Source: an uncultured archaeon (lineage in GTDB: Archaea; Asgardarchaeota; Heimdallarchaeia; Heimdallarchaeales; Kariarchaeaceae). From it: DNA of 64,000 nt. Made by a program: the position numbers and the translations under genes. The stretch lies in the NCBI GenBank assembly GCA_964600735.1, contig CAZRLL010000001.1, forward strand, positions 28,801 through 92,800, read 5' to 3'. Below the pieces are notes generated by a model that was not told the origin of the DNA, searched no databases, and saw only the letters and a list, made by a program, of their open reading frames with translations. Of this stretch, positions 29,978 to 57,704 are shown piece by piece (the first letter of the stretch is position 1; each line of letters begins with the position of its first letter).

Positions 29978-31546
29978 TCATTCATTTTTTCGTCTCCTAT
30001 ATTGAATTCGTTTCAATAAGCGATACATTCCCAGTTTGTGGATCCACCACAGTAAGAAAGTCTTCACCAAGTCTTTTCCCCAACACTTCACATATTGAGA
30101 ACATCTCTCTGACCGTAATACAGCCTGCCAATATTGTGATTGATAAGGTTTTGCAGCCCACATCCTTTCGAACATTGGTGTAGCTTTGAACTCCCTGTTC
30201 CATCTGTCCCATATTACCTCCAAATCTAACTTATGGTCGCTTAATCTGAATCTCTCCAATGGATTTAGCCGGTTTCCTATTAAAAGGTGATATTCGTCTG
30301 TGGTAAGCTTTGGCTTGAACTGATCTTCGTAAATTTTGGTTCCTGGATAAGGAGTGGTGACGCCGAATATGACGCCAGCCGATGGTTTGATTTCTTTCAA
30401 AAATTGGTGTGTAGATTCTAAATCTTTCGATGTCTCGCCAGGCAAATTCAAGAGCATTGTAGCGAAAGACCGCAACTTGTATTTCTTGCACCACGAGAAT
30501 ACGTGACGAATTTGATCTAGTGTTATTCCTTTGTTTACTTGATCCAAAAGTTGTTGGCTCCCCGATTCCACTCCTATATCTAGTTGTATGCATCCTGTGG
30601 CTTTTAGTCCCCTGATCATTTCCTCTGAACATATGTCTGCCCTCGTTTGAGTTGCGTAAGGTATTTCAACTATACTTTTTCTTGACGAATAAGTTTCAGT
30701 CTTACTCTTCCATTCAAACCACCCATTCATCCACTTCTTTGACATACCAAACATGTCGTCAAACAAGTAGAAAAAATCTATGCTATAAAATTCCTTCAAT
30801 TGCACAATCTCGTTTATGACATTTCCTACTGGTCGCAATCTACACGCTTTTCCTTCATTTGCCTGCCACACGTTATTCGCAGCACAAAAGTCGCAATCAA
30901 AAGGGCAACCTCTACCGGCAAAAATACAGACCATAGATGTGTAGATACGCCGAATAATAAGCTTCTGAGGATAAAGATAATAATCCATATCAACGAGATC
31001 ATAGCTAGGACTTGGTAAATCTCCCATATCCATGACTCTTCGTTTTTTTGTTTTAACATATTCTGGCTCCTTTAGTACGTAAGACATGTAAGCAATACCA
31101 GCAACTTCGTCTAACCGTTTAGTTACAGGTTTGTCGTACCAACACCATAAATCATAACAAGTCTCTTCTCCTTCTCCTAATACAGCTACATCGAAATTCG
31201 ACTCTTTAAAAATGAAGTCTTGCGGACTAATCGTACTATGCGCGTTTCCCACAAGTAAAGTTGTATCTGGTTGATTAAGTTTGACAATACCCCCAAGACG
31301 CATAATAGCAGGATAATCACTATGAAAAGCAGCCAACCCAACAAAACGGGATGGGTTACATCTAAGTTCTTGACTAATCGTTGAGTAGTGTACTTCAAGT
31401 TCATGAGGCCTATCACCTCCCTTTACGTCTACAATCTTAACCCTAAGACCCTTCTCTCTCAAATAAGCAGATAAGTAGAGAAAGTAATAAGGCGGATGCG
31501 GATTACGTGCATTAGTCGGACTTGTTATGAATAGAAAGTCTAACAT
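29978..31546 (-). CDS. B12-binding radical SAM enzyme
   Basis: CPFDCDFC (CxxxCxxC) and an N-terminal cobalamin-binding-like domain. The start was moved to MLDFLF with its RBS, because the ORF-track start overlaps the tRNA-like element. Confidence 0.65.
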   Translation of the reverse strand: MLDFLFITSPTNARNPHPPYYFLYLSAYLREKGLRVKIVDVKGGDRPHELEVHYSTISQELRCNPSRFVGLAAFHSDYPAIMRLGGIVKLNQPDTTLLVGNAHSTISPQDFIFKESNFDVAVLGEGEETCYDLWCWYDKPVTKRLDEVAGIAYMSYVLKEPEYVKTKKRRVMDMGDLPSPSYDLVDMDYYLYPQKLIIRRIYTSMVCIFAGRGCPFDCDFCAANNVWQANEGKACRLRPVGNVINEIVQLKEFYSIDFFYLFDDMFGMSKKWMNGWFEWKSKTETYSSRKSIVEIPYATQTRADICSEEMIRGLKATGCIQLDIGVESGSQQLLDQVNKGITLDQIRHVFSWCKKYKLRSFATMLLNLPGETSKDLESTHQFLKEIKPSAGVIFGVTTPYPGTKIYEDQFKPKLTTDEYHLLIGNRLNPLERFRLSDHKLDLEVIWDRWNREFKATPMFERMWAAKPYQSQYWQAVLRSERCSQYVKCWGKDLVKTFLLWWIHKLGMYRLLKRIQYRRRKNE

Positions 31547-31557
31547 AAATTTAAAGG

Positions 31558-31646
31558 TTGGGAGTAGGAGAGATTCGAACTCTTCGGGTTGTACTCCACT
31601 ACCATGTGGACCCACCGGTTCTGCGCTAAAACCGGCTCTACTCCCA
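31558..31646 (-). tRNA. tRNA-like element. It has a 7-bp acceptor stem and a T-arm AGAGTTCGAATCTCT identical to Ser-type tRNAs, but non-canonical D/anticodon arms (TCCAC-ATGGTA-GTGGA hairpin with a 6-nt loop). Isotype undetermined; it may be a degenerate tRNA or att-related.
   Basis: Reverse complement is GGGAGTAGAGCCGG...GAAGAGTTCGAATCTCTCCTACTCCCA. Confidence 0.4.
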
Positions 31647-31650
31647 CAAT

Positions 31651-32421
31651 TTACCTCCAGTCTAGTTTATTAAAGTCATTACGAAAATCACAAATATTCC
31701 ATAGTTCATTTATGTCAGCAGAACAACAATGGTCAGGACCATCAGCATGCTTATTAAGAGTAAAGTGTTTCTCTACCACTTTTGCTCCAAGAACAATAGC
31801 AGTTTTAGCGGTAGTAGTACCTACAGTATGATCGGAAAAACCATCAAACCTCTCTACGCTAAGAGGATTTACTCGTTTAAAAATAGAACTGTGAAAGTCG
31901 ATCTTACTTAAAGACGTAGGATATTCAGATACACAGTACATAAACGTACAGTTTCCACCCGTACCGGCTAACCTGCTCCACGTCCCGTAGATGGGCTCCA
32001 TCTTATGCATCTCCTCAATCATACCCATACTTACTAAGTATGGCTTCCCAGTTTTCTTAACTGCTTCAACTAACTCTTTGTCGTAAATACTACGACTTGC
32101 TATCTTATGTCTTTTCACTCCTAACTCTTCTAACCAATCAAGTCTCTTCAAATCAAAAGCAGAGGCCAAGAATTCTATACCAGCCTTTCTGCAGTGCTCG
32201 AACAATACTGCAACATCTCCAAAGTTCAACTCCGATCTTAAGATAGACTGCCAATTACTAAGACTAAAAGAGTCTGGATTTAACAATAGCTTAGGATCGT
32301 AAACTTGAAACTTTACTGCATCGGCACCACAGCCCTTCGCACTATCAATCATATTCCTAGCTAATTCCAGGTCCCCACCATGGTTAATGCCAATTTCTGC
32401 TATTATCTCACACTTTGCCAC
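31651..32421 (-). CDS. N-acetylneuraminate / pseudaminate synthase family (NeuB/PseI-like)
   Basis: MAKCEIIAEIGINHGGDLELARNMIDSAKGCGADAVKFQ is the canonical NeuB N-terminus. Confidence 0.8.
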   Translation of the reverse strand: MAKCEIIAEIGINHGGDLELARNMIDSAKGCGADAVKFQVYDPKLLLNPDSFSLSNWQSILRSELNFGDVAVLFEHCRKAGIEFLASAFDLKRLDWLEELGVKRHKIASRSIYDKELVEAVKKTGKPYLVSMGMIEEMHKMEPIYGTWSRLAGTGGNCTFMYCVSEYPTSLSKIDFHSSIFKRVNPLSVERFDGFSDHTVGTTTAKTAIVLGAKVVEKHFTLNKHADGPDHCCSADINELWNICDFRNDFNKLDWR

Positions 32422-32422
32422 T

Positions 32423-33097
32423 TTACTCTCCTATACCATCAAATATTACTGGCACTCTTTTCTGGAATTCTTTAAGTGTTGGTATCATTATCTCCTGCAT
32501 CTGTGGATGGGCTGCTTTGGCTGTACGGAGTTTGAAGATATGCCGCCACTCACGAAAGTTGGCCGTGACTACCAGTTCGGTCTTAAGGGAGTTTGGAAGA
32601 ACTGATCTGGCTTGCTGTGGGGACCAACCTAAATGGAGTAAATTCATATAAGTTTCTTCTGTACTATAAACAAGTTGAGCCCAGTCATAGTTTGCTTGAT
32701 CTTCTCCCCCAAGATCGTCTGGAGTGTCATAATCTCCCGGGTCAATATCAACCCAAGGTGGAATAACAAAAGTAACCCCTCCTTTATAATTACAGTACCT
32801 TGTACTCTCCTGGCTGAAGGCACAAAGCCTATGTCTGACCCACTCATGGCTGACCCCTCTATCAATAACAAACTTGACTGTAACCGCAGAGTGCTCAAGA
32901 ACAGATTCATGGCCTCTTTTTAAAATCATCTTAACAAAGTTAATAGCTGAAGTAGCGGTTATTTGATCTTCTGACTTGTAACAAGTTCTCCCAGCATGCT
33001 CTATTAAAGCAATAGGTGTATCACAAGGTAACATCTCATGTGCAGGATCGTACCCCATAATTGACAAAATTTCAAAACTCGGTTTTACTAGAAACAT
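32423..33097 (-). CDS. thyX: Flavin-dependent thymidylate synthase ThyX
   Basis: RHRLCAFSQESTRY matches the ThyX RHRxxxxxxxS motif. Confidence 0.85.
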   Translation of the reverse strand: MFLVKPSFEILSIMGYDPAHEMLPCDTPIALIEHAGRTCYKSEDQITATSAINFVKMILKRGHESVLEHSAVTVKFVIDRGVSHEWVRHRLCAFSQESTRYCNYKGGVTFVIPPWVDIDPGDYDTPDDLGGEDQANYDWAQLVYSTEETYMNLLHLGWSPQQARSVLPNSLKTELVVTANFREWRHIFKLRTAKAAHPQMQEIMIPTLKEFQKRVPVIFDGIGE

Positions 33098-33221: not shown

Positions 33222-34049
33222 TCATTTGTACCTCTCTTGCTCATACCACCAGGACCTAACCCAACCTTGAAGGAATTTTGGTAACACATCAAACACTTCC
33301 ATCAAGTAGTAATATAACATTATCTTATAATACCATCTTCGCGACACTTCACTTTTCCACTTCCTAACAATCTTTCTAGACTCTTCCCTACGCTTATGAA
33401 CATCACCTATAACAGAGCCATAATGAATAGACAAAGTTCCACCAAGATTATCTGGTATGTAATGGAACTGGTACTTAGAAGCAACCTTCAACCACAAGTC
33501 CCAGTCGTGACTAATTTTAAACTTCCAGTCCATGGGACCAAACTCATTGTATACACTACTTCTTATTAACACAGAAGAAGTTGGGACGAAGTTCTTTCTA
33601 AGTAAAACTTCAAAAACTTCACCAGAAAAACAAGTTGACATCTTACTCCACAACTCAGACCTACCAACGTCAACATACTTTACTAGCATATTGTGGTAAG
33701 AAAAGACTTCTCCAGTTACTTCTAAGTACCAAACTTGCAATTTTAACTTCTCTGGCTCCCACAAGTCGTCGCTATCTAAAAATGCAAGATACTTCCCCTT
33801 AGCATTAGCACAACCTGTATTTCTAGGATGAACTGGGCACCCACTATTCCTTCCCATATCAATGTATCTAATTCTGCCATCACAGATTGTATGCGACGCT
33901 ACAACTTGTTTAGTGTTATCGGTAGACCCATCATCAACAACAATAATCTCTAAGTCCTTAAAAGTCTGCATTTGAACAGACTCTATTGCTATAACTAAAT
34001 CGTCTACCCTATTATACGTTGGTATTATAACAGATACTATTGGGTCCAT
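33222..34049 (-). CDS. Family 2 glycosyltransferase
   Basis: VSVIIPTYNRVDDL...EIIVVDDGSTDNT. Confidence 0.7.
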   Translation of the reverse strand: MDPIVSVIIPTYNRVDDLVIAIESVQMQTFKDLEIIVVDDGSTDNTKQVVASHTICDGRIRYIDMGRNSGCPVHPRNTGCANAKGKYLAFLDSDDLWEPEKLKLQVWYLEVTGEVFSYHNMLVKYVDVGRSELWSKMSTCFSGEVFEVLLRKNFVPTSSVLIRSSVYNEFGPMDWKFKISHDWDLWLKVASKYQFHYIPDNLGGTLSIHYGSVIGDVHKRREESRKIVRKWKSEVSRRWYYKIMLYYYLMEVFDVLPKFLQGWVRSWWYEQERYK

Positions 34050-35293
34050 AGATCGATATACCTCTCAATAATCTTGTCAGTAGAGTACTGATCAAGAAAA
34101 AGTTGTTTATTAGCAGCACCAAGACGCTTACGTTCACCAGCCTCCAGAAGTAGCCTAGAAACAAGAACCTTTAACCTTGAAACGTCTCCTGGATTAATGA
34201 GATAAGTAAAATCTGATTTGAACAGTTCCGGAATTCCACAGATATTAGACGCTACGATTGGCTTACCCATCATTAACCCTATTAAGATCACATTAGGAAA
34301 ATCTTCATCTCTAATACTTGGAACTAACAACACGTCACACGACTTAATTAAACTATAAGTGTCAAAGTCATCGTTTTCTTCTACCAGAACAAGACTAGTA
34401 GACGCTTCTGCTAACTTTTTTAAATTAGAACCTTCTGGGCCAGACCCACCAATAACAAGAACTCTTGGGTTATCACATTTTATTTTCCCGAAAGCCTCAA
34501 TCGCGTCCTTGAAGCCTTTCCTTTCTTCAAAGTTACCAACACAAAGAAACATAATGTCACTTTTCTTTATTGCTTTATCTAGTCCCCCTCGTAAAAGCCA
34601 AATAGAAGTACATTCCCTTGAAAGGACAGTATTTGGTATGACCTCCCAGTTTATAGTTACCCAGTTTTTGCCATTCGACGCGTTTTCTTTAACGATTATT
34701 GAAACCCACAAAAACTTACTTTGATCTCTACAATACTTAGATGCAGTAATAAATTTCGTTACACACTTCTTTACCAACCAAGTCATTGGTCTTTCCCACC
34801 ATCTATTTTTAGTTGTAGAGTTAATCATGTATGTTATCTTTGGGACTCCCATAAGGCGACCAGCAATAGCAGCACTATTACAGCTAGTAGCACCAGGATA
34901 CCCTCCGTTATTTATGTGCAACACATCGGGCCTCAATTGGCCTATCAGTTTGCACAAAACGATCCCCTCATAAAGCATAAAGAAATAACCCAGTGCCATA
35001 ACTGGTCTAAAATAAAGCCTGATTTTGTATAAGAAAGAGATAGGGAGGCGAAGTGGAAAAACGTCACGTTTACTACTATCTATTCTTTCGTTTGCTGACT
35101 TGCAAAAGATACCTGTCACCCATTCGTTAAAACCCTTCACATACTCTTTACTATATCGATAACTAAGCGTTAAGTCAAACTCGTTGTTTAGTACTTTGTT
35201 CTGTAAAAAGATACCTGGCATGTTTTCGCAACCAGCCCAACTACTATTATCGCTGTGTATATGTAGTTTCTTTTTCATTAACGAAAACCTCAT
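34037..35293 (-). CDS. GT-B glycosyltransferase (GT4-like)
   Basis: C-terminal FEERKGF...EDFPNV..GLMMGKPIVASNICGIPEL resembles the GT4 EX7E region. Confidence 0.6.
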   Translation of the reverse strand: MRFSLMKKKLHIHSDNSSWAGCENMPGIFLQNKVLNNEFDLTLSYRYSKEYVKGFNEWVTGIFCKSANERIDSSKRDVFPLRLPISFLYKIRLYFRPVMALGYFFMLYEGIVLCKLIGQLRPDVLHINNGGYPGATSCNSAAIAGRLMGVPKITYMINSTTKNRWWERPMTWLVKKCVTKFITASKYCRDQSKFLWVSIIVKENASNGKNWVTINWEVIPNTVLSRECTSIWLLRGGLDKAIKKSDIMFLCVGNFEERKGFKDAIEAFGKIKCDNPRVLVIGGSGPEGSNLKKLAEASTSLVLVEENDDFDTYSLIKSCDVLLVPSIRDEDFPNVILIGLMMGKPIVASNICGIPELFKSDFTYLINPGDVSRLKVLVSRLLLEAGERKRLGAANKQLFLDQYSTDKIIERYIDLWTQ

Positions 35294-35985: not shown

Positions 35986-37899
35986 TTATCTCCACCCCAC
36001 TTTGCTAAAATGGTCACACATACTAGTAACTACCCAACAACCATGAGCACAATAACATTTGTCCCTTTTTATATACTTTAACTCTTGCTTCATAGATGAC
36101 CCATTTAGAGCTTTAGTAACGTCGTAGTTGTAATACGCTAAGTCAGTCACTGTATCTCTCATCTCACACGCTACCAACTTACCGTCCGGGTAAATAGTAA
36201 ATGCCTTTTTACCAGCCAAACAAGGAAAGTCCCAAGGTTTACCTATAGTAGAATTAAGATACTGGACGTTAAATCTTCTCTTAGTTAGTAAATAATAAGA
36301 AAAGTAGTTCTTCTTTATAACTTCTAGAAGCCCTTTATACATTCCATCAAGGGAAACGTGGTACTTAAAACCTCTAAAAGACCTTTCAACCTCAAAGTTG
36401 TGATAATCTAGACTAGGGAAAGCGTACGCCATCTCTTTAGCGAAGTCAACTAACTTGTCCATAGTTCCTGGTGTTATCAAAGTATTGATACATACGTTTA
36501 AACCTTTATCTGTAGGTTTAAATGACAATAAAACCCTTAAAGTATCCATTGCCCTACTATATGACTTGTCATTCCCCCTCATTTCATTATGCGTTTTCTC
36601 GAATCCATCTAAAGATACAGATACAGTAATAGTTTTATGCTTAGCGACTAAAATCTTAGCCATCATGCCCTTTACTGCTAAAGGTCGCATACCGTTAGTA
36701 TTTATCCAAACATTGCTCTTTTCAGAAAACATATTAATAGCGTCTTGTATTCTATCATATAGGAAAGGTTCGCCACCCGTTAGTAGTACGTTGTTTGGAG
36801 TAACACTACGATGAATAGATCTTACGTTGACAATATCCATATCACCATACGTATGCAACTTACCCTTGTAGAAACAAGCCTTACATGACAAATTGCATTT
36901 GTCAGTAAGGAACAGTATCATTAAGTCTACACTACTTTCGTTTTTCCTAGAAGGTAGCCAGTCCTCGTAGTAGTGGTAGAAGTTCTTTGCTCTTACTATA
37001 AGGTGAGCTTTTACTTTTCCAGGGAGAAGTAAATGCCGCTTTATTTTTTGGCGTAACGTAGGATTAGCATTAAATTCTTTATAAGATAAAGATTGCCCCC
37101 TTCCCTTCACAAAACTAAAACATCTATCCCTTGCTTGACCCAGAGCAACGTCTGCGCTCCAATCACCACCAGGAGTAAGTAGTGCTTTAGCAGTGTAGCC
37201 TTCTTTATGAATACGATAGTTAGTAAGTCGATCCTTCAACATATAAAAAACGTAGTAGTACGAACATTTAAGTAAGAATACCCAATCTTCATGCTGATAT
37301 AACAAGTCTTCATCAAACCCACCAACAGCTTCAACTACCTCTCTTTTAACCATGATAGAAGATGAACAAATAGGATCACCATCAGACAAGATACCAAAGT
37401 GAGTACGCTTACGTAACTGTGCTAACAACTTTTCATTCCAAAACGAATCCCAGTAGCCTTTTGCCGGACTAGTTCCAAAAATTCCTCTACCAGGTTTCCC
37501 TACCCATGTCGCAGTTTCTTGGCTAATTATAGTATTAACTCCAGTATGTACTACGCCAGCGTCTTGCTCTTCCATCGCCAGTACTTGTTTCTCTAGCTTA
37601 GTGGGTTCCCAGTAGTCGTCTGCATCTAGATAGGCTATATAGTCGCCAGTACTTATTCTAAAACCCAAGTTTCTACTCTTACTAACACCTAAGTTTTCAA
37701 AATTCTCTATTACTCGTAACTTCTCTTTTAAACTATCTTCATATCTACCTACTACTACCAAACCACCATCAGACGAAAAGTCGTCTACTACAATAATCTC
37801 CCAGTTAGTATAAGTCTGAGATAATACACTGTCTATTGCTTGACCTATGTACCTCTCGTAGTTGTAGAGTGGAATTATAACAGATACTTTACTCAACAT
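35986..37899 (-). CDS. Fusion of a GT2 glycosyltransferase (N-terminus) and a radical SAM/SPASM-like domain (C-terminus)
   Basis: N-terminus VSVIIPLYNYERYIGQAIDSVLSQTY...EIIVVDDFSSDGG. C-half has CNLSCKAC (CxxxCxxC) and further Cys clusters. Confidence 0.6.
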   Translation of the reverse strand: MLSKVSVIIPLYNYERYIGQAIDSVLSQTYTNWEIIVVDDFSSDGGLVVVGRYEDSLKEKLRVIENFENLGVSKSRNLGFRISTGDYIAYLDADDYWEPTKLEKQVLAMEEQDAGVVHTGVNTIISQETATWVGKPGRGIFGTSPAKGYWDSFWNEKLLAQLRKRTHFGILSDGDPICSSSIMVKREVVEAVGGFDEDLLYQHEDWVFLLKCSYYYVFYMLKDRLTNYRIHKEGYTAKALLTPGGDWSADVALGQARDRCFSFVKGRGQSLSYKEFNANPTLRQKIKRHLLLPGKVKAHLIVRAKNFYHYYEDWLPSRKNESSVDLMILFLTDKCNLSCKACFYKGKLHTYGDMDIVNVRSIHRSVTPNNVLLTGGEPFLYDRIQDAINMFSEKSNVWINTNGMRPLAVKGMMAKILVAKHKTITVSVSLDGFEKTHNEMRGNDKSYSRAMDTLRVLLSFKPTDKGLNVCINTLITPGTMDKLVDFAKEMAYAFPSLDYHNFEVERSFRGFKYHVSLDGMYKGLLEVIKKNYFSYYLLTKRRFNVQYLNSTIGKPWDFPCLAGKKAFTIYPDGKLVACEMRDTVTDLAYYNYDVTKALNGSSMKQELKYIKRDKCYCAHGCWVVTSMCDHFSKVGWR

Positions 37900-39377: not shown

Positions 39378-39547
39378 ACCCTTACTCCCATGTTCGCGAG
39401 CCTTTTGTACTGTAAGTACTTTGCCCTTCTACCATCTGGGTGGTTCATTAACGTACCCTTACTAGTTATCACATACCTACGCCGGGCATGAAACGAGAAG
39501 TCGCCATAGACTAACTTCCTAATTTTCTTTGCTTTACTTCCTCTCAT
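39374..39547 (-). CDS. Small basic protein (MRGSKAKKIRK...)
   Basis: Strong SD GGAGGAGAAATG. Its stop overlaps the RfbB-like start (ATGA). Confidence 0.3.
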   Translation of the reverse strand: MRGSKAKKIRKLVYGDFSFHARRRYVITSKGTLMNHPDGRRAKYLQYKRLANMGVRV

Positions 39548-39548
39548 T

Positions 39549-46518: not shown

Positions 46519-46968
46519 AGTCCCCCCAACGCTGCTCTATAACGTAGTCCACTTGATCTGCAATTGTATTAAAGACGTCCCAGAGTCCAACAAACGAAAC
46601 TCTTTCCTTTATGTCAGAAGAATATATATACTTTTTATCTTGTCTTGGAACAACACAAATGACACGCTTACCAAGCATAGTAGCCTCCATAAATGGAGTT
46701 GAAACTGAATCAACAACTACTAAGTCTGCCTTTTTTAATTCTCGACTAAGTTTCTTTGTACTGTAACGCATATTAACGTCACGGAATCTATCCACTGGGT
46801 CCTCGAGGTTGCTAGACCTAGGTCCGGCCTTCCATATAACTTTACATTGAAGACCAGAAAAGTAGTTCCATAGATTCTTATGTAACCAGTAGTACCAGCA
46901 ACTCGGAGTTGTAGGAGGCCACAACCCACGACCAGCCCTGTAGATACAGGGTATATAAATGATAGTTT

Positions 46969-49247: not shown

Positions 49248-50362
49248 AGCACTGCCTCTTTTCTCTTTACCAGGTGGCCCTTACTGTCTTTCTCGAATAT
49301 ACTTTTGTTAGCAAACAACTCGCAGACTTCGTCGAACTCATCTTCACTCATCCAAATAAAGTCCAAAAATTCTTTAAAGTACTCTTTCGGGAACTTTCCC
49401 TCGTTATTATTTACTAGTACGACAGCTCTTTCCCTCGTTAACCTTCTATTTCTTATATCTATACAAGCATGACTAGTAGCACGACCAAAACCATACTTCA
49501 GATACATTAACCAATCATGAAAACCATACCACTTCCCATCTAGATTCTCAAAGTCTGTGTAAGTACCAACAGTAGGAGAAGGACTGGTATTAAAATTTGT
49601 CTTCTCTTTTATGAATTGGATTTGTTCCCTTGCATCCCACTTCATAAAATAACCAAGGTAGATTCCAGTAACTCCAACTTTCTTTATGTCTTTGTCGGAT
49701 GGATAAATATAAGGTTTAAGATCTGAGAGAGTTATCCCCTCAACTGTAGTCATAGCATCCACTCTATTTCCTAACAAACAAAACTCCTCTACCCACCTCC
49801 TGTCAAGTACACTTTCATCTCTATGCCACGCAGGACCACCATATTCTTGTTGCCCATTCTCTCCCCATACTATCAACGGAATATTAAACTTAACTGCTAC
49901 TTGAACTGGAACGGTAAAGATCCCAACGTGACACGGCCAGCAAGAATCTCCAACTCTCTTTAAACCTTCCCTTGCTAACTTCCTGTATATGATAGGGTCT
50001 GGAGTAAACAATATATGGTCAACACCTATCTCTCTTAATGAATCGAGATTACTTTGACCTAAAGGCGTCATAGCACATTGAGCAAAAGTAACAGCTAGCG
50101 GGCTCATATTAAACTCGTGCTTCAAAATCCATGTTTGATAGTGGCTATCTTTTCCACCACTAACTGGCACGATACAATCATACTCAGTCGAACTCTTTAA
50201 ACGGTACCTCCTCAACAAGGATTCAAGCTCTGAGTACCTAGTAAACCAGTCTATGTCTTTACTTTTACCCTCAGCAGAAACGCAAGCATCACATACTCCA
50301 TCTTCATTAAAGACTATATGAGGTCTAGTGTCTGGCATAACGCACTTCTTACAGTATTTCAT
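49241..50362 (-). CDS. N-acetyl sugar amidotransferase (PP-loop ATPase, WbuX/PseA-like), copy 1
   Basis: N-terminal Cys cluster MKYCKKCVMPDTRPHIVFNEDGVCDAC and PP-loop VSGGKDS. Confidence 0.7.
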   Translation of the reverse strand: MKYCKKCVMPDTRPHIVFNEDGVCDACVSAEGKSKDIDWFTRYSELESLLRRYRLKSSTEYDCIVPVSGGKDSHYQTWILKHEFNMSPLAVTFAQCAMTPLGQSNLDSLREIGVDHILFTPDPIIYRKLAREGLKRVGDSCWPCHVGIFTVPVQVAVKFNIPLIVWGENGQQEYGGPAWHRDESVLDRRWVEEFCLLGNRVDAMTTVEGITLSDLKPYIYPSDKDIKKVGVTGIYLGYFMKWDAREQIQFIKEKTNFNTSPSPTVGTYTDFENLDGKWYGFHDWLMYLKYGFGRATSHACIDIRNRRLTRERAVVLVNNNEGKFPKEYFKEFLDFIWMSEDEFDEVCELFANKSIFEKDSKGHLVKRKEAVLC

Positions 50363-50372
50363 TTTCCAATCC

Positions 50373-51635
50373 TTATAAAGTAATAGGAGAATATTCTATA
50401 TGTTTAGACTTATCCCTACAAAAAAACCGCTTATTATTACTACCAAATGTCCTGTCTTCTGGACGAACTAGAAGCAGACGAGCATCATCGACTTCTCTAT
50501 CATCTAGTACAATAGAATCCTTTACCACCCACATCTCAGTAGACTTATGTTTTTCCCATATATTCAAATCTCTCATAGGCTCAACCCAGTCTAGAAAAGT
50601 CTGTTCCGTAATTCCCATAAAATCCAAATACGATTGCAAAGTAGAAGGTCTCACAGAGTCGTACTCGCTAACTAATTGTGTACCTTCTTCTCTTGTCATA
50701 CGCCCATGCCTTATTTCTGTAGTAGCATCGTCAGTCGCTCTTCCATATCCAAACTTCAAATACTTCAGGTAGTCATGAACGTCATTAGCGTGGTCATCAC
50801 TCTTGGCATGCAAAACGAAAGACCTTTCATTTGGAACTTCTCGTAAACCAAAGTCATAGCGGTGGACCATTTCCTTTGCTTGTTCCAAAGCGTCCCAGTA
50901 CATAAAGTTGCTCAAGTAAATTCCTCTCATCCCAGTCTCGGATATTTGTTCTTCTGTCGGAAAAACGTAGGGAGCTACGTCTAAACTAGTTATTCCACTC
51001 TCCTCATTAATTAAGTCTTCTGGTTCGTATCCCCTCATATCATGTTCTTGCCTTGTCCACTTAGTAAACTCTACCATGTCTTCAAGGGAAACCAACCCAA
51101 CAATTTCAGCGAAGCCGTGTTCCCCCCATATTACAAGTGGAATGTTCCACTTGACTGACACTTGAAAAGGAAAAGTTCTAATACCAGCATGATAATGCCA
51201 GGTAATGTCACCTACTGTCTTCACCATATACCTAGATATCTTTCTAACAGATTCTGTATTAGCAGTAAATCTAATCAAATCAACTCCAAACTTCTCCACT
51301 ATATTATTAAGGTTCCTTAAACCTAGCTTTGTATTAAAAGTATGGTTGTATGTAACTAGCAAGGGATTCATCCCGTAGACTACTTTCATCAAGTAAACTT
51401 GATAATGGCTGTCCTTTCCACCGCTGACTGGAATAATACAATCGTAAGGGTTACCAGCTTCTTTTGCTTTCTGTTTATATTCAGCAAGGATTTCACGTAG
51501 TAGTTTTTCCCTCTCAGACCAGTCTATGGTCTGCCTTGACTCGTGGTAACGACAACCACTACATACTCCCTGCTCATCAAAGATGATAGTAGGTTTTGCA
51601 TTTTCTGGATATAAACACCTCTTACAATAGTTCAT
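50373..51635 (-). CDS. N-acetyl sugar amidotransferase (PP-loop ATPase), copy 2
   Basis: MNYCKRCLYPENAKPTIIFDEQGVCSGC and VSGGKDSHYQ. Diverged paralog of 49241..50362. Confidence 0.7.
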   Translation of the reverse strand: MNYCKRCLYPENAKPTIIFDEQGVCSGCRYHESRQTIDWSEREKLLREILAEYKQKAKEAGNPYDCIIPVSGGKDSHYQVYLMKVVYGMNPLLVTYNHTFNTKLGLRNLNNIVEKFGVDLIRFTANTESVRKISRYMVKTVGDITWHYHAGIRTFPFQVSVKWNIPLVIWGEHGFAEIVGLVSLEDMVEFTKWTRQEHDMRGYEPEDLINEESGITSLDVAPYVFPTEEQISETGMRGIYLSNFMYWDALEQAKEMVHRYDFGLREVPNERSFVLHAKSDDHANDVHDYLKYLKFGYGRATDDATTEIRHGRMTREEGTQLVSEYDSVRPSTLQSYLDFMGITEQTFLDWVEPMRDLNIWEKHKSTEMWVVKDSIVLDDREVDDARLLLVRPEDRTFGSNNKRFFCRDKSKHIEYSPITL

Positions 51636-51811
51636 TAGCTCTCCTTCACACTACGCTTTATATTGTCCTTAATAATAACCTTTAAGTCAGACTTTAATCT
51701 GTCTTGATGACATTTTGAGCAAATCTCTTTTCTTTTTGACCACGGTTTATTTCTATCTGGTAAAGTAGCTTTTTCCTTGTAACAGATTTTACAGACCATC
51801 ACTTCCCTTAC

Positions 51812-52576
51812 CTAACGGACGTCTATACCATGCTCTCTCATATACTTTTTGGCCTTCTTTGTACTTTGCTCTTTATAATGGAATATATTAGCAGCAGCAA
51901 CAGCGTCAGCACCACCTTTTACTATTCCATCGACAAGATGTTTCCATTCCAATACACCACCCATTGCTATTACTGGAATAGTTACTGCCTTGGAAACTCT
52001 TTCCAACAAACCTAAGTTGTAACCTTTACGGTTCCCGTCATTATCAATGCAATTCAAAAATATTTCTCCCGCTCCAAGCTTTTGACATTCCATAGCCCAG
52101 TCAACTGGATGCCAAATTCTAAGTTCTCTACCCCTATCTGTACAAACAAGATAGCCGTCACTCTTCCAATGCGGGTACCGTTTAACGTCTATTGAAACAA
52201 CTACACATTGGCTACCAAAAGCCTTAGCACACTCTTTAATAAATTCTGGCCGCCGAAATGCTTCACTGTTAATAACTATCTTATCTGCTCCTAGATCGAA
52301 CCTACTCTTTGCTTCTTCGATATTTGTTATCCACCCACCAACGGTTAAAGGTACAAAACACTTAGTAGATAAGTCCTCAATTACGAAGTAAAAACCATAT
52401 TCATCTCGATTTCTACTAACATCGAGCAAGATTATTTCATCAACCGCCCACTCATTAAAGAAAGTAACAGCAGTAGCAACATTCCAATGGATAACGTTAG
52501 TGTGCTTAAACTTTACACTTTGAACTACTTGCCTATCCCGAACAAGTACCACTGCTATTAATCGCTTCTTTAACAA
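51812..52576 (-). CDS. HisF-like cyclase subunit, copy 2
   Basis: Paralog of 48486..49247 (GAGEIFLNCIDNDG, VIAMGGV). Confidence 0.7.
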   Translation of the reverse strand: MLKKRLIAVVLVRDRQVVQSVKFKHTNVIHWNVATAVTFFNEWAVDEIILLDVSRNRDEYGFYFVIEDLSTKCFVPLTVGGWITNIEEAKSRFDLGADKIVINSEAFRRPEFIKECAKAFGSQCVVVSIDVKRYPHWKSDGYLVCTDRGRELRIWHPVDWAMECQKLGAGEIFLNCIDNDGNRKGYNLGLLERVSKAVTIPVIAMGGVLEWKHLVDGIVKGGADAVAAANIFHYKEQSTKKAKKYMREHGIDVR

Positions 52577-53174
52577 AATTTTCTAAGACCTTTAACCCTA
52601 TAGATTGGCTCTTTTCTGGATGAAATTGAACTCCGAAAATGTTGTCTTTCTGGACGCTACTACTAAATGTAATTCCGTGAGTACAACATGACGAAACATA
52701 ATCACGATTCGTTACCTCAAAGTAATAACTATGAGCAAAGTAGAAAACTGGATCTTCAACAAATCCATCAAACAAAACATTACCTTTTTCAAAATCAACA
52801 TCATTCCAACCAATATGTGGTACCCTCAAGCCAGTACTACCAGTCTCTATTAACTTAACCGTTCCACCTATCCAGCCAAGGCCTTCGTGTTCTCCCATTT
52901 CCAAACTGCAGTCGGCTAACAACTGCATACCAAGACATATTCCAAGGAACGGTTTTTTCTTGCCTATAACTTGCTCATTCAAACACTCAATAAGACCTGC
53001 TTCTTTTAAGGACTTCATTCCTTCACCAAACGCTCCAACACCAGGGATAACTATAGCGTCTGCCTCTTCAAGTACCTGGTAAGAGTTACTTACTACAGGG
53101 TCCTGCCCTATCTTTTTAAAAGCATTAAAAACTGATTTAATATTGCCGGCTTTATAGTCAACTATTACTATCAT
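52533..53174 (-). CDS. HisH-like glutamine amidotransferase (class I)
   Basis: MIVIVDYKAGNIKSV...PGVGAFG...GICLGMQLL (catalytic Cys) ...HPEKS. Confidence 0.75.
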   Translation of the reverse strand: MIVIVDYKAGNIKSVFNAFKKIGQDPVVSNSYQVLEEADAIVIPGVGAFGEGMKSLKEAGLIECLNEQVIGKKKPFLGICLGMQLLADCSLEMGEHEGLGWIGGTVKLIETGSTGLRVPHIGWNDVDFEKGNVLFDGFVEDPVFYFAHSYYFEVTNRDYVSSCCTHGITFSSSVQKDNIFGVQFHPEKSQSIGLKVLENFVKEAINSSGTCSG

Positions 53175-53423
53175 TTTACTAGGACACATTGTCCATCTCC
53201 TCTCTAACTTCCGGATCTAACTCTAAAGTACCATAGTTTAATAAGGTTAACTCGTCCATCATAAAAGTTACATCTAGGGTACTCTTTGGTTTAAACACTT
53301 TCACAATAACAGGTAGTCTATTACTATAGTCGACCGCTAACCAACCCCTAGACGATCGCATCAAATTCACTGGGTATTCAGGACCCCAAGATGTACCAGG
53401 CTTACCCTTCATCTAACCATCCT

Positions 53424-53978
53424 TTATAGTTCTGAAATGTCTAACGACTCAATTACTCCAGTAAACCTCCCCAAACCATATTGTGGAAAAGCTTCAAGAT
53501 GGGGCTCTCCCATACTCCCAATTACTAAGTTCCCATTACCTTTTACACTCCCAAGATTCAATTCCCTACTATTAAACTCAACTACTCCAGTATAATCGAC
53601 GGAAAGAGATAAGACCTTTCCATCATACTTCATACAAGCCTCGTAAGAAACTCTAGGATTTACAAATGGCACAGTTACCCCAACCCCATTAGTAAATTCA
53701 TCTTGTACTTGACTACCATCTCCTACATCAACAAAGAAATAACAACCAACAGTCATATCTGTAGGGTGGTGTTTAAACCATTCAGGAGTAATATAACCAA
53801 AACAGTAGTTGCGATGCCACTGCCCATTACGTTTATCAAAAATAAAACACCCATTGTCTAGCTTACCCAACTGAAACTTTACTACAATTGACCACTTATC
53901 TAAATCTAGAGAATCTGAATTTGGTATTATTACAAAATTTTCCCCAGTAAATTCCGTACGACCAATAATCCTTGCCAT
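53424..53978 (-). CDS. LamG/ConA-like domain protein, paralog of 53979..54857
   Basis: Shares DKRNGQW.RNYC...F.VD.GDGS..DD.F.NGV with its neighbour. Confidence 0.35.
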   Translation of the reverse strand: MARIIGRTEFTGENFVIIPNSDSLDLDKWSIVVKFQLGKLDNGCFIFDKRNGQWHRNYCFGYITPEWFKHHPTDMTVGCYFFVDVGDGSQVQDEFTNGVGVTVPFVNPRVSYEACMKYDGKVLSLSVDYTGVVEFNSRELNLGSVKGNGNLVIGSMGEPHLEAFPQYGLGRFTGVIESLDISEL

Positions 53979-54857
53979 TTAATTCTCCCGATCTTTAGGT
54001 TTCTTAAAAGGTTCAATAGTTATACTGTCCTCCATCATTAAACTCTCTTGCGTTACAACCCTTTCGACAGTGTCGTAAATTTCAATTTTATCTATCTTTC
54101 CATATAAAGTATGAGAGTTCCCAACAGGCCATTGACCAACAGTATGTGGAAAACCAGCATCTCCAACTACTAAATCACCACTACCAGTAATGTCTCCAAT
54201 TTTTAATTTCTCTCTAAAACCAACAACTTTGTCTTCAAGCCAAAAAACTAGAAAATTCCCATCAAACGTAGCAACAAAATCAAACATAGTAAGAGAAGGT
54301 ACTCTATCGATACTAAAGAAAACTCCATTATGAAAATCATCGTCCATCCAACTACCATCACCAATGTCAACTAAAAACCAACTAGAATCATTCATTCCAT
54401 CTCTTAAATGTGGAAAACTAGGCGAAGCGTAAAGCATACAATAATTCCGGTACCATTGACCATTACGTTTGTCAATTATATATTGGGATTTACTTGGATT
54501 GTAAAGACCTACAGAAACGCACAACGTAAACTTACTAAGATTAATAGCATCATCATTCAAAATCTTCATAAACGAGTGGCCATTAAAACCAAGCCCGATA
54601 GTTTCATCATCAACTTCCCATTTACGTTGTTCAAAGGACTCCCTAGTACCAACAGAATACGCAGCCGTATCAATTGCCTGCTCAGTCTCGTTTTCTTTAT
54701 TACCTAAAGGCTTGCCCCTACTATCATGTAGATAGACTGGAGTTACATTAAATCCACGAGCATGATTACCATTACCACTTTCATCTTCAACAATACTATT
54801 ACCACTCTTATCAATGTACTTAAAACTACTAGCAGTCCACTTTCCAGTTAAAGCCAT
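53979..54857 (-). CDS. Two-domain LamG/ConA-like protein
   Basis: Internal and neighbour paralogy. Confidence 0.35.
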   Translation of the reverse strand: MALTGKWTASSFKYIDKSGNSIVEDESGNGNHARGFNVTPVYLHDSRGKPLGNKENETEQAIDTAAYSVGTRESFEQRKWEVDDETIGLGFNGHSFMKILNDDAINLSKFTLCVSVGLYNPSKSQYIIDKRNGQWYRNYCMLYASPSFPHLRDGMNDSSWFLVDIGDGSWMDDDFHNGVFFSIDRVPSLTMFDFVATFDGNFLVFWLEDKVVGFREKLKIGDITGSGDLVVGDAGFPHTVGQWPVGNSHTLYGKIDKIEIYDTVERVVTQESLMMEDSITIEPFKKPKDREN

Positions 54858-54868: not shown

Positions 54869-56005
54869 TTAAAGAACTTCACATTTAAATCCATTTTCAG
54901 CCGCGTGTTTTCTAAAAAATTTCCGCTCACCTTCTCTGCTCGCAACAAAGTGATCGTAAACTTTTAGCCTTCTCCAATCTGTAATCCAAGAGTTATACCC
55001 TTCCCAACCATGCTTTACGTAATACGTAGGTATACCAAGTTGTTTGGCAGCGATTAACAACCCATACTGGTAAAGCCTATTACGCCTCGTAAAAATAACA
55101 GCAGTCTTATAGCGTGGAAATTTCTTTAAATATTCAAAATAAAATTTGGAATGCTCAACAATCTTTGGAACAACACATTTCAGATAGTGGTCTAGCTGTG
55201 GACCTACTACTACCTGAACTAACTCTAAATCAACGCCGCAAAAATCAGATAAGTTACTACATAAGCTATCTACATCCCAGTGAAAGGAACCAGTACGATT
55301 TACTATTACATCAACGATTGGAACGACCTTACACTTGCGAAATTGAAACTTCATATCTCTTAACGTCGCCATTGTACTAGCAAACAAATACGTCCAACCA
55401 CTAGGCTTCCCGAACCAGATAAACCTACAGTACCTAAACCAATCGTAAACATTCCTTATAAATCCTATATCCCTCCAGCTAGTAACCTTCTTAATACCAA
55501 CATCCGGAACATGAATTAAAGTAGCCTCAATAGACTCCGCAATTCTATAAAAAATAGATCTCTGAAAAAACAGGAGTTCGTCGTTTGGTTGTCCACTTTT
55601 ATTTCTATTAGCGAAGTAATAAATTTTACTTGGATTCTCTTCTTTTAAAATACGCTCAAACTGTACTGCTTTTCTAACAAAAGAGTCAACCATCCCTTTT
55701 AGTACAGCAACACAGTAAGTAGACATTGGGATGTAGAAAGAAGAAACTTCTGGGTACAACCTTGCAGTAGTAGACTCTACAAGGTTAAGCCAGTTCTCAA
55801 AACTAGAAGTATACTTATCTGTTTCTTCCCATACTAAATAGTCTTCCGGAATCTTGTAGGTAAGCCCTAGTTCATCTAACTCGTACATAGCCAGTGGAGA
55901 CAAAGCGACAAGTTGAAGATTCCCATCCAAACCAGCTAGAAGTGGTTCAACCTCTACACTAAAGTCCTCAACAAAGACTAACGAATTATTAGTTGTCATC
56001 GCCAA
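54869..56005 (-). CDS. Hypothetical protein, possibly a GT-B-like sugar/nonulosonic-acid transferase
   Basis: 378-aa ORF inside the cluster. No firm motif. Confidence 0.25.
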   Translation of the reverse strand: MAMTTNNSLVFVEDFSVEVEPLLAGLDGNLQLVALSPLAMYELDELGLTYKIPEDYLVWEETDKYTSSFENWLNLVESTTARLYPEVSSFYIPMSTYCVAVLKGMVDSFVRKAVQFERILKEENPSKIYYFANRNKSGQPNDELLFFQRSIFYRIAESIEATLIHVPDVGIKKVTSWRDIGFIRNVYDWFRYCRFIWFGKPSGWTYLFASTMATLRDMKFQFRKCKVVPIVDVIVNRTGSFHWDVDSLCSNLSDFCGVDLELVQVVVGPQLDHYLKCVVPKIVEHSKFYFEYLKKFPRYKTAVIFTRRNRLYQYGLLIAAKQLGIPTYYVKHGWEGYNSWITDWRRLKVYDHFVASREGERKFFRKHAAENGFKCEVL

Positions 56006-56523
56006 TCATCCTCTTTGTATGTATAAAATTTACTACTAAACCAACCACCCTCCATATAAACAGTGTCTGAAATAGTAGCTTCACATTTAAAGCTACATCC
56101 TTCAAATAAGCGAATACCTGGCACATTAAAAGCATATATTTCAGCATATATACGATGAAGCCCTAAAACGTCAAAGGCTTTTATTTTCAAGTACCTCAAT
56201 ACCTCACTCCCAATTCCAGTTCTCCTTCTGAAAGAATCTCCAATGTAAATACTAACTTCGGCGCTCCTGTTGATAAGATCAATGTAACACAAACCGCAGA
56301 CCCCAACCAGTTCAGCATGCTCATTAATATCAGACCTAGAAGAGACAATTCCATACATCAAGTTTTTATCAAGATCTAAATTATCAAACCAACTCTTATG
56401 CTCTTTCCAAGAAAGTTCCCTCCACTGCCTAGTCCTCGACATAATAAGTGGATCATTTCGCCACTTAAATAGAGTTAGTAAGTCTTCTTCATCAATGGGT
56501 CTCAGCACGACATATAAAGTCAT
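55996..56523 (-). CDS. GNAT N-acetyltransferase (PseH-like)
   Basis: RRRTGIGSEVL..KAFDVLGLHRIYAEI acetyl-CoA-binding motif. Adjacent to the aminotransferase. Confidence 0.55.
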   Translation of the reverse strand: MTLYVVLRPIDEEDLLTLFKWRNDPLIMSRTRQWRELSWKEHKSWFDNLDLDKNLMYGIVSSRSDINEHAELVGVCGLCYIDLINRSAEVSIYIGDSFRRRTGIGSEVLRYLKIKAFDVLGLHRIYAEIYAFNVPGIRLFEGCSFKCEATISDTVYMEGGWFSSKFYTYKEDDWR

Positions 56524-57704
56524 AATAAGTAATCTCCAGTCTCTAGAAGTTCTTTAGTAGCAGATACGACATGGTTAACATCTTTAGTCGTCATACCTGG
56601 TCCTAAAGGAAGACTAACAGTACGTTTTCCAATCCATTCTGCATTATTAAACATTCCGGAGTGCCACCCCAAGTTCCGATAACAAGGATGTAAATTAACT
56701 GGCTTATAATGAATGCCACAATAAACCTGTTTTTCCCGCATTTTAGCAATAAAGTCGTCACGGTTACCAAGGCAGATTGTGTACAGATGATATCCATGAA
56801 CGTACCCAACATTAGGATTCAAAGATGGTCTAATTCCAGGATAGATTCCATTAAAAATTTCACGATTACAGAAATTCTTAAAGGCAAGATTATATTGATT
56901 CCAAATGTACTTTCTAGCCTCCCAGTTAGCTTCAACGTTCCTTAGTTGAGACAAAGCGACTACCGCCTCAAAATCAGTGCAATTAGCTTTATAACCGCAA
57001 TCAACAAGACTATAAGTGCCATTACTGTTAACCCTCTCTGAAGCCTCAGCGTCCATCCCATGAATACGTAACCTCCTCAACTTTTCTGCTTTCTCTTCAT
57101 CGTTCGTAACTATCATACCCATCTCTGGAGCAGCAATATTTTTAGTAGGATTAAAAGAGTAACATCCCATGTCCCCAAACGTCCCGACATGTTGCCTATG
57201 AAACTGAGTCTCTACCGCATGAGCACAATCTTCTACTATCCTAGCTCCAGTCTCTTTACTTAACTCAACAAACTCATTCATGTTACAAGGAAAGCCAGCA
57301 AAGTGGACTGGAAGTAAAACATCGTCAGGACCTGGTTTAGGGAAAATGTTACTCGGGTTCATACATTGAGTATCAAAGTTGATGTCAGCCAGGAAAACTC
57401 CCCTAGCACCAGCGTGGATAGCAGAGTTAATAGTAGAACAAAACGTTAAAGGGCTTGTGTAGACATAATGATCTCTAACATCTAAAACTATCAGGCTCAA
57501 AAACAAAGACATAGAACAACTATTAGTAGCAATAGCATATTTAGCCCCAACGTACTCTGCGAACTCTTTTTCGAGATTCTTAGTGTATTCACCCATAGTC
57601 CACCATCCAGAAGTCAAGACAGTCATCAAGTCAAGCAGAACACGCTGCGTATTTATATTAGGTTTTGCTAAAGGAATCATGTACCAGTACCTGCGCGATA
57701 CCAA
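56520..57704 (-). CDS. DegT/DnrJ/EryC1 PLP-dependent sugar aminotransferase (PseC-like)
   Basis: MIPLAKPNINTQRVLLDLMTVLTSGWWTMGEYTKNLEKEFAEYVGAKYAIATNSCS. Confidence 0.8.
   Translation of the reverse strand: MVSRRYWYMIPLAKPNINTQRVLLDLMTVLTSGWWTMGEYTKNLEKEFAEYVGAKYAIATNSCSMSLFLSLIVLDVRDHYVYTSPLTFCSTINSAIHAGARGVFLADINFDTQCMNPSNIFPKPGPDDVLLPVHFAGFPCNMNEFVELSKETGARIVEDCAHAVETQFHRQHVGTFGDMGCYSFNPTKNIAAPEMGMIVTNDEEKAEKLRRLRIHGMDAEASERVNSNGTYSLVDCGYKANCTDFEAVVALSQLRNVEANWEARKYIWNQYNLAFKNFCNREIFNGIYPGIRPSLNPNVGYVHGYHLYTICLGNRDDFIAKMREKQVYCGIHYKPVNLHPCYRNLGWHSGMFNNAEWIGKRTVSLPLGPGMTTKDVNHVVSATKELLETGDYLL

Follow-up and report, generated by a model that had tools for sequence, protein, structure and literature searches.

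Nonulosonic acid-type sugar genes and a WaaL-like membrane protein in a tailed phage from marine sediment

The DNA described here is the 64-kb stretch shown above (the window; all positions are those of the window). It is phage DNA and not a chimera, and it carries a block of sugar genes (the sugar block) at 29978-57704 on the minus strand. The block spans 27.7 kb, about one quarter of the 111,339-bp source contig, and its enzymes appear to form a pathway of the nonulosonic acid (NulO) type; the window also encodes a WaaL-like membrane protein. We give an even chance to the reading that the block is a phage-lineage glycan module which remodels the envelope of the infected cell.

The phage origin follows from diverged relatives from other samples (L003, L008/L044, L009, L127, and L128), which keep both the genes and their order, with amino acid identities of 40-64%, and in which these genes are linked to terminase, portal or recombination genes. 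The GC content is even across the window (0.36-0.43), and the composition of the block is the same as that of the rest of the phage. Because of this uniform composition and the synteny in relatives of 40-60% identity, the block is an old module of the phage lineage with variable accessories, and not a recent capture from a host. A preliminary description of this DNA had called it an island, a word that implies such a capture; this part of the description did not hold.

The relatives differ in what they retain. In L003, genes for a family 2 glycosyltransferase (GT2), a B12-binding radical S-adenosylmethionine (SAM) enzyme and NeuB adjoin those for terminase, portal, MuF and capsid (about 50-57% identity). 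L008/L044 begins with RecA, Rad50, Mre11, PseC, PseH, the 378-residue family described below, a 308-residue protein, a WbuX-like protein, a 148-residue protein, PseB and PseF, and it continues with a B12-radical SAM enzyme, PIG-L, RfbB, a family 4 glycosyltransferase (GT4), GT2, NeuB and a second B12-radical SAM enzyme. L127, a 112,458-bp JGI contig, holds PIG-L, RfbB, a GT2-radical SAM fusion, GT4, GT2, NeuB, a B12-radical SAM enzyme, terminase and portal. L128 and L009 are two further relatives carrying sugar genes, and another relative contig measures 101,070 bp. The block of L044 has one WbuX-like gene and lacks HisH/HisF, DUF4915, ThyX and DUF1643, and the GT2-radical SAM fusion is present in some relatives and absent in others.

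Enzymes of the sugar block

Gene families were assigned by Pfam and NCBIfam profile searches, and the NCBIfam equivalog cut-offs were used as the benchmark; most enzymes of the block fall below theirs. Every gene class listed in the preliminary description was recovered at the position where it had been placed. All long open reading frames (ORFs) of the window are on the minus strand, as are all genes given with window coordinates below. The block is densely packed, with only five gaps of more than 40 nt. Read in the direction of transcription, with falling coordinates, it begins with a DegT aminotransferase, a GNAT protein, a 378-residue protein, two paralogous proteins, HisH, WbuZ/HisF, two WbuX and a second WbuZ/HisF. 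A DUF4915 protein, a 153-residue protein, PseB, a CTP_transf_3 cytidylyltransferase, a second 153-residue protein, a B12-radical SAM enzyme, DUF1643 and PIG-L follow. After about 2 kb of small ORFs, the block ends with an RfbB-like dehydratase, a fusion of GT2 with radical SAM/SPASM, GT4, GT2, ThyX, a NeuB-family synthase and a further B12-radical SAM enzyme. Six ORFs of the block have no family assignment.

The first enzyme of the pathway is a UDP-GlcNAc 4,6-dehydratase of the inverting type (PseB, 45529-46518), which scored 406.5 bits with TIGR03589 against a cut-off of 407.75. Its closest solved structure is FlaA1/PseB of H. pylori (2gn4, E 3e-87), and the catalytic motifs STDKA and YGxTK are intact. 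The identification as PseB is solid despite the marginally low score. The DegT-family nucleotide-sugar 4-aminotransferase (PseC-like, 56520-57704) matched Pfam DegT_DnrJ_EryC1 with 287 bits; its top NCBIfam model was TIGR03588 PseC (239 bits, cut-off 423), the ArnB model gave 223 bits, the closest solved structure is ArnB 1mdo, and the identity to the L044 counterpart is 55%. The N-acetyltransferase of the GNAT family (PseH-like, 55996-56523) has clear generic GNAT domains (Acetyltransf_3, 67 bits) and scored 77 bits with the PseH model TIGR03585 (cut-off 93.1). Its gene overlaps the start and stop of its neighbors, and these genes are therefore probably translationally coupled.

The ulosonic acid synthase (31651-32421) is a short NeuB-family protein of 256 residues. 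It scored 169 bits with Pfam NeuB, 183 bits with the NeuB equivalog model (cut-off 400) and 158 bits with the PseI model (cut-off 340). It consists of the TIM barrel only, without the C-terminal SAF domain of the characterized NeuB, PseI and LegI, and the barrel aligns to 6ncs, 1vli, PseI 8h2c and NeuB 1xuu. The motifs NH, KFQ, KIAS, YCxSxYPT, GFSDHT, ExH and D are invariant among the phage homologues. The cytidylyltransferase (44835-45539) is a putative CMP-ulosonic acid synthetase of the PseF/NeuA-like type, with 40 bits for CTP_transf_3 (cut-off 22.6) and 73 bits for PseF TIGR03584 (cut-off 206); its best solved relative is the CMP-Neu5Ac synthetase 1eyr, to which it aligns over the full length (E 1e-7).

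An acetamidino-forming module consists of five contiguous genes (48486-53189), in which WbuX, a HisH-like glutaminase and a HisF-like partner are all present. HisH (52533-53189) scored 236 bits with TIGR01855 (cut-off 105), and the two WbuX (50373-51635 and 49241-50362) scored 343 and 388 bits with TIGR03573 (cut-off 203). The two WbuZ/HisF proteins (51812-52576 and 48486-49247) were recognized by TIGR03572 and Pfam His_biosynth. Their TIGR03572 scores (250 and 269 bits) are below the cut-off of 300, yet this was their top-scoring model, and the His_biosynth scores were 166 and 216 bits. These results bear out the NulO-type pathway proposed in the preliminary description: PseB stands at the equivalog threshold, the two WbuX and HisH are above their cut-offs, and the aminotransferase, GNAT protein, synthase and cytidylyltransferase match Pse or Neu models best, although far below the cut-offs. 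The pathway is thus of the NulO type and Pse-like at its first step.

The DUF4915/TIGR03032-like protein (412 residues, 46969-48207) is just above the threshold of PF16261 (35.5 bits, cut-off 35). A homologue of 40% identity adjoins NeuB and WbuX/HisH/WbuZ in the Desulfobacterales metagenome-assembled genome (MAG) L069. Other cellular NeuB loci likewise hold WbuX/HisH/WbuZ and B12-radical SAM genes, DUF4915 being found in this one. The odd accessories of the phage block thus seem typical of NulO clusters in uncultured anaerobes, and since cellular NulO clusters share them, the whole phage block may be read as one pathway.

Further enzymes would tailor the sugar or build the glycan. The two B12-binding radical SAM enzymes (29978-31615, motif CPFDCDFC, and 43040-44371, motif CPYNCIFC) scored 45 and 65 bits for B12-binding and 65 and 70 bits for Radical_SAM, respectively; the first is 56-64% identical to its counterparts in L003 and L008, and the second 55% identical to those in L008 and L044. 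The PIG-L family de-N-acetylase (41379-42248; PF02585, 74 bits) shows 59% identity in L008 and L044. The nucleoside diphosphate (NDP)-hexose 4,6-dehydratase of the dTDP-glucose, RfbB-like type (38364-39377; TIGR01181, 348 bits, cut-off 365) is kept in L008, L127 and L128. The fused protein (35986-37899) combines Glycos_transf_2 (126 bits, residues 6-149) with Radical_SAM (45 bits, residues 331-486), and SPASM-type models match residues 326-622; a fusion of this kind (652 residues) is the one found in L127. The GT4 enzyme (34037-35293; Glycos_transf_1, 88 bits) and the GT2 enzyme (33222-34049; Glycos_transf_2, 111 bits) are 49% and 63% identical to those of L008, and neither has a credible membrane span. 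CxxxCxxC is present in all three radical SAM domains, and DxD in both GT2 domains.

The 378-residue protein (54869-56005) belongs to a rare family. A word-indexed search of 5.8 billion proteins found six homologues, and an exhaustive profile search of 1.8 billion found 28 close representatives (50%-identity clusters, E<=1e-30). Comparison of the family with PDB sequences by sequence profile gave no match, and only the comparison of folds was informative. Its AlphaFold2 model (predicted local distance difference test score (pLDDT) 79) shows two Rossmann-like domains of GT-B-like form, and the top Foldseek matches were UDP-GlcNAc 2-epimerase and NeuC, both weak (E 6e-3 to 3e-2). Its remote relatives are about 600 residues long, and one of them is fused to a CMP-sugar-type cytidylyltransferase and a TagF-like domain. 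Because of these weak epimerase and NeuC matches and this fusion, the protein could act on an activated sugar, and we consider it a candidate for the missing hydrolase/epimerase or for a CMP-sugar transferase.

The WaaL-like protein and the destination of the glycan

The WaaL-like protein (4835-6862) has 675 residues and consists of a polytopic membrane part of the Wzy_C family (62 bits, cut-off 31.7) and a C-terminal TPR-like domain. Its gene lies in the late virion region, with capsid genes on one side and tail genes on the other, and it encodes the sole polytopic membrane protein of the window, with about 13 hydrophobic helices. The AlphaFold2 model has a pLDDT of 81, and its top Foldseek match was WaaL 7tpg (E 8e-6, probability 1.00, target template modeling score 0.61), while the last 230 or so residues matched TPR proteins. 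Comparison of the family with PDB sequences by sequence profile gave no match, which left the fold comparison as the informative one. In 17 WaaL-like homologues, the residues R270, R272, R319, R326, H329, N330 and D331 of the large loop are invariant. The cues for the membrane side of the TPR domain conflict: the count of 13 helices places it outside, and the K/R-rich stretch after the last helix places it inside.

The gene has the same neighborhood in the relatives L041, L042 and L129, and the 112,458-bp JGI contig carries both this gene and the NeuB module. The WaaL-like protein is probably part of the same glycan system as the sugar block. The WaaL/Wzy_C enzymes work on the outer face of the inner membrane, where they use lipid-linked glycans, and the particles of tailed phages assemble in the cytoplasm. 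For this reason, at least one glycan directed by the phage would end on the host envelope. We therefore regard the WaaL-like protein, as modeled, as the best clue to the destination of the glycan, and it favors export to the host envelope over decoration of the virion.

We infer the following chemical steps, in this order. PseB, the PseC-like aminotransferase and the PseH-like GNAT protein would convert UDP-GlcNAc to a 2,4-diamino-2,4,6-trideoxyhexose. The free sugar would then be released by a hydrolase yet to be found, the 378-residue protein being one candidate. From this sugar and phosphoenolpyruvate, the short NeuB would form a 5,7-diamino nonulosonic acid, and the PseF/NeuA-like enzyme would convert it to the CMP-sugar. 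The two WbuX would turn N-acetyl groups into acetamidino groups with ammonia supplied from glutamine via WbuZ and HisH. Further tailoring may consist of de-N-acetylation by PIG-L and of C-methylation or a related radical reaction by the two B12-radical SAM enzymes, and the RfbB-like dehydratase would provide an input of 6-deoxyhexose. The oligosaccharide would be assembled by the soluble GT2, GT4 and GT2-radical SAM enzymes, presumably on a host lipid carrier. Finally, the WaaL-like/TPR enzyme would ligate it to an acceptor in the envelope. This acceptor may be lipid A-core or a protein of the cell surface, for example, pilin. The altered cell surface would likely mask receptors, both against superinfection and against loss of the progeny on cell debris.

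Several points weigh against this reading. None of the profile libraries recognized a PseG or NeuC homologue among the window proteins, which concerns the free-sugar step, and the PseC, PseH, PseI and PseF scores are all below the curated cut-offs, so that they do not distinguish pseudaminic acid (Pse) from legionaminic acid (Leg) or another ulosonic acid as the product. On both counts, the preliminary description went too far in calling the pathway complete. Pfam, NCBIfam and membrane scans found no priming phosphoglycosyltransferase, flippase or NulO-transferase family in the window, and the host would have to supply these functions. A WaaL-like ligase and a Wzy-type polymerase are not separable by their fold, and the protein may be either of them or a protein O-oligosaccharyltransferase. 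Moreover, the WaaL-like gene is 23 kb from the sugar block, and the link between the two is one of co-occurrence alone, direct in two genomes.

Glycosylation of the virion is the foremost rival to remodeling of the envelope. That is, the soluble GT2, GT4 and GT2-radical SAM enzymes might attach the NulO glycan in the cytoplasm to proteins of the capsid or tail, and the sugar coat would serve to shield the particles, make them adhere or stabilize them; the WaaL-like protein would be unrelated to the block. All transferases of the block are indeed predicted to be soluble, and the position of the block next to the packaging and head genes and its conservation in the lineage would suit a trait of the particle itself. 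The virions of mycobacteriophages are glycosylated by phage-encoded glycosyltransferases. However, no NulO transferase or protein-glycosylating family was recognized, about 8 kb of small ORFs separates the sugar block from the terminase, and the conserved, periplasm-acting WaaL-like enzyme would have no role in the assembly of virions in the cytoplasm. We thus consider virion glycosylation unlikely.

Somewhat less likely still is a mere supply of precursors, in which the phage would boost or divert the pools of CMP-NulO and NDP-6-deoxyhexose for the capsule, lipopolysaccharide or flagellin glycosylation of the host, with no phage-specific glycan or acceptor. The lack in the window of a priming transferase, a flippase and a recognizable NulO transferase agrees with this idea, and viral neuA/B/C clusters were so interpreted in earlier viromics papers. 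However, the lineage has kept three glycosyltransferases and a ligase-like enzyme, which exceed the needs of a precursor supply.

The boldest version of the envelope reading also allows display on virions. In that version, sediment phages of about 110 kb would encode a self-contained, doubly amidinated, radical SAM-tailored NulO glycan that is either exported by their own ligase, as a serotype conversion within the lytic cycle, or displayed on the virions. We find this full combination doubtful. If it were true, the phage would produce a sugar that the host cannot make, or would itself be a "sialylated" phage. It would also bring new enzymology, namely, a SAF-less NeuB, the 378-residue GT-B-like family, the GT2-radical SAM fusion, and B12-radical SAM chemistry on a nonulosonic acid.

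Phage origin and flanking genes

Downstream of the sugar block, beyond the small ORFs, lie a terminase candidate, a portal protein (phrog_21 and Phage_portal_2), a MuF-type head protein and an HK97-type capsid protein (Phage_capsid_4). The terminase candidate is weakly supported (phrog_5653, E 3e-4), yet it adjoins the portal gene in the relatives too. The MuF-type head protein (13185-18713, 1842 residues; the counterpart in L042 has 1697) carries an ADP-ribosyltransferase exotoxin domain, which points to a packaged and injected enzyme. A protein with a Laminin_G_3 (ConA-like lectin) domain is encoded in the tail region (2189-3007), and a tape-measure gene stands further downstream in L042. 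Upstream of the sugar block are Mre11/Rad50-like genes and RecA, and beyond the window a class II ribonucleotide reductase and a second ThyX. The Rad50/SbcC-like ATPase is split, with a gene for an Mre11-like nuclease between its halves (58832-59512, 59753-60817 and 60890-61960); the ORF of 356 residues (60890-61960) corresponds to the N-terminal part and that of 226 residues (58832-59512) to the C-terminal part, and L044 is arranged likewise.

With the portal, head and HK97-fold capsid proteins encoded on the same molecule as the sugar block, the source is a tailed phage (Caudoviricetes) of about 111 kb. Neither the 64-kb window nor a 10-kb flank of the 111,339-bp contig showed an integrase. 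A tblastn search with the capsid protein against deposited phages gave no match, and the phage was not placed in this way. The preliminary description had taken the block for phage DNA adjoining virion genes. Diverged relatives confirm it, since their independent contigs repeatedly show the linkage to genes for terminase, portal and capsid.

One might instead suppose that the sugar genes are bacterial chromosomal DNA, either misassembled onto a phage or flanking a prophage in a Planctomycetes genome. The GenBank label of the contig and a break near 24.98 kb in the Logan assembly of the same run speak for this idea. It is very improbable, however, and has been largely refuted. Independent assemblies of the same sample are concordant (111,222, 111,280 and 111,339 bp), phage genes lie on both flanks with uniform GC content and strand, and the block recurs in five diverged relatives from other samples together with terminase, portal or RecA-Mre11 genes. 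Contigs of relatives measure 112,458 and 101,070 bp. The assembly break itself falls on a repeat array. This non-coding array (24880-25150) contains about six imperfect repeats of 19-21 nt (CAACGTCGCTACTACTAGTCG-like) in both orientations, with palindromes, and an AT-rich stretch (24750-24800) adjoins it. Its layout resembles that of a replication origin, or it may be another array to which a protein binds. The region at 24.8-25.3 kb, where the preliminary description had suspected a chimeric junction, is this iteron-like array with its AT-rich stretch, and not a junction.

Just as improbable is a hypermodification of the phage DNA, in which the sugars would be placed on the bases to evade restriction: the block contains one ThyX, another is encoded upstream, and DUF1643 and other nucleotide-metabolism genes are nearby. 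Against it, families of base hydroxymethylases or DNA glycosyltransferases were not found, the ThyX motif is the canonical RHRX7S, ThyX and DUF1643 are missing from the block of L044, and the enzyme set resembles the NulO clusters for cellular surface glycans and is accompanied by the WaaL-like envelope enzyme. The two genes inside the block are ThyX at 32423-33097 and DUF1643/phrog_3230 at 42251-42784.

The sample was an anoxic subsurface marine sediment of the Arctic Mid-Ocean Ridge, taken in a study of anammox bacteria (PMC7768721). The source contig is scaffold_73 of ENA ERZ23499938, and in GenBank it appears as "MAG: Planctomycetes bacterium" with FVQ80 locus tags, its genes being annotated as ordinary bacterial genes (for example, the proteins MBW8001699, MBW8001709, MBW8001728, MBW8001754 and MBW8001758). 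The label reflects either mis-binning, for example by similar composition, or a hint of the host. Metabolic reconstructions of anammox-zone sediments that follow this label would assign the sugar genes of a phage to a bacterium.

Just past position 64000 of the window, the neighboring segment L006 (335-9161) encodes a tungsten-type aldehyde:ferredoxin oxidoreductase (686 residues), an Aminotran_5 protein, a UbiD-family decarboxylase and the class II ribonucleotide reductase. This auxiliary gene set is unusual and of a kind seen in anaerobes. The second ThyX, at 6156-7037 of the same segment, is longer (293 residues), giving two ThyX per phage genome.

Known systems, rarity and minor features

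The block resembles the Pse pathway of Helicobacter and Campylobacter (PseB, PseC, PseH, PseG, PseI and PseF) in its PseB, in the aminotransferase, GNAT protein and cytidylyltransferase, which match Pse models best, in the synthase, for which the Pse model is second best, and in its amidotransferases of the WbuX/PseA type. It differs in that it has no recognizable PseG, PseC, PseH and PseF scores far below the cut-offs, a SAF-less synthase that scores slightly higher with the NeuB model than with the PseI model, two WbuX with HisH/HisF partners instead of a lone PseA, and the extra B12-radical SAM, PIG-L and RfbB-like enzymes. It is, moreover, encoded by a phage.

A system of this kind is already known at the level of genome description. 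The Lake Biwa viral genome LBVG_26 carries neuA, neuB, neuC, capD, pseA, pglC and pglD, and an alteration of the host surface was speculated (bioRxiv 10.1101/655167). Compared by description, both phage genomes hold a NulO synthase, a CMP-transferase, a dehydratase, an aminotransferase, an acyltransferase and a PseA-type amidotransferase. The phage described here differs in the size of the block (about 28 kb, about 25% of the genome), its three radical SAM enzymes, three glycosyltransferases and second dehydratase, its synteny within a lineage and its WaaL-like ligase, whereas NeuC is present in LBVG_26 and not recognizable here. New in the present phage are thus the size and lineage conservation of the block, the radical SAM tailoring, the doubled amidotransferase set, the SAF-less synthase, the rare 378-residue family and the WaaL-like/TPR enzyme.

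Phage-encoded Wzy_C proteins effect serotype conversion, for example, in Pseudomonas phage D3 (PMC9658991). The serotype-converting phages (D3 Wzy-beta with Iap and Oac, phi297, and VarioGold VG_p25) share with the present phage a polytopic Wzy_C protein acting on lipid-linked glycans (PMC9658991). Phages of the D3 type are temperate, and their moron-like cassette has one to three genes and draws on sugars of the host. The present phage, in contrast, has a TPR tail on its WaaL-like protein, places the gene among the late virion genes and brings its own sugar pathway. Between the WaaL-like protein and the Wzy_C proteins of deposited phages, no similarity was detectable except for one weak match to a Halomonas phage. 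TfpO/PilO of P. aeruginosa 1244, also of the Wzy_C family, transfers a pseudaminic acid-containing O-unit to pilin, and glycosylation of the pilus blocks phages. A Wzy_C enzyme and a Pse-type glycan occur in both systems; the one in P. aeruginosa is cellular, and no pilin or other acceptor was identified here. The likeness is only an analogy.

The phage synthase resembles the short NeuB proteins of bacteria (Leptospira 6ncs, Nitratidesulfovibrio, Desulfocurvus and MAGs), which have 230-290 residues, a TIM barrel only, the same motifs and 39-47% identity; we know of none with a demonstrated substrate. In the bacterial segments L048-L052 (about 10001-11500 in each), the closest short NeuB homologues (232-295 residues) are immediately followed by a GT2 gene, and NeuB adjoins GT2 in L008 as well. 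This arrangement suggests that short NeuB and GT2 form a conserved two-gene unit in bacteria. When one genome per prokaryotic species was scanned, the cellular NeuB homologues reached at most 45% identity, came from many phyla and gave no host signal. An assignment of the host by NeuB similarity was rejected, as the nearest cellular homologues (39-45%) are scattered across phyla.

Among 50,697 deposited phage records, NeuB homologues occurred in only three, with at most 30% identity (two uncultured phages and one record labeled as the bacterium Moritella viscosa), a Wzy_C homologue occurred once as a weak match, and no WbuX homologue was found. A PseB-like gene was present in six of these records. 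Four of the six, two of which are shorter than 20 kb, are unannotated records with Staphylococcus or Listeria phage labels, and these four may include host DNA. In IMG/VR, 33 contigs had short NeuB genes; back-translated WbuX patterns gave no match there, with a method that detects close relatives only.

Sialic acid-like sugars govern the recognition of bacterial surfaces by phages, predators and immune systems. A trait that is stable, large and paired with a ligase makes the role of phage-made surface sugars testable in a defined set of genes. The block also holds uncharacterized enzymes, namely, the short NeuB, the B12-radical SAM enzymes of NulO clusters, the GT2-radical SAM fusion and the rare 378-residue family.

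The remaining observations concern minor features. The window contained no tRNA or rRNA genes, and an Rfam scan of it was empty. Scans for sigma-70 promoters and intrinsic terminators between 29 and 64 kb found fewer sites than in shuffled controls and gave no information on operons. The stretch of about 2 kb inside the sugar block (39377-41379) has small ORFs only, one of them weakly VWA-like (39789-40145; E 4e-4, below the cut-off). The two paralogous proteins (53979-54857, 292 residues, and 53424-53978, 184 residues) are 37% identical over 151 residues, and a single homologue of 308 residues stands in their place in L044. They had no Pfam, NCBIfam, PHROG or PDB match, and a ConA/LamG-like nature was rejected (BLASTP against the LamG protein of the window itself, E 0.1). 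Besides the paralogues, two small proteins are kept in relatives and lack any family match. A conserved protein of 153 residues is encoded directly upstream of PseB (46511-46972), and L044 has a homologue in this place (56% identity). It matched no family in any library, and its reading as half of a GT-B domain was dropped, as no library supports it. In its longest form, the small ORF at 42756-43175 overlaps the 3' end of the second B12-radical SAM gene by about 135 nt, and tblastn matches in L008 and L044 overlap in the same way. Because the gene called in those two relatives encodes 96 residues, the true start of this ORF is probably further downstream.

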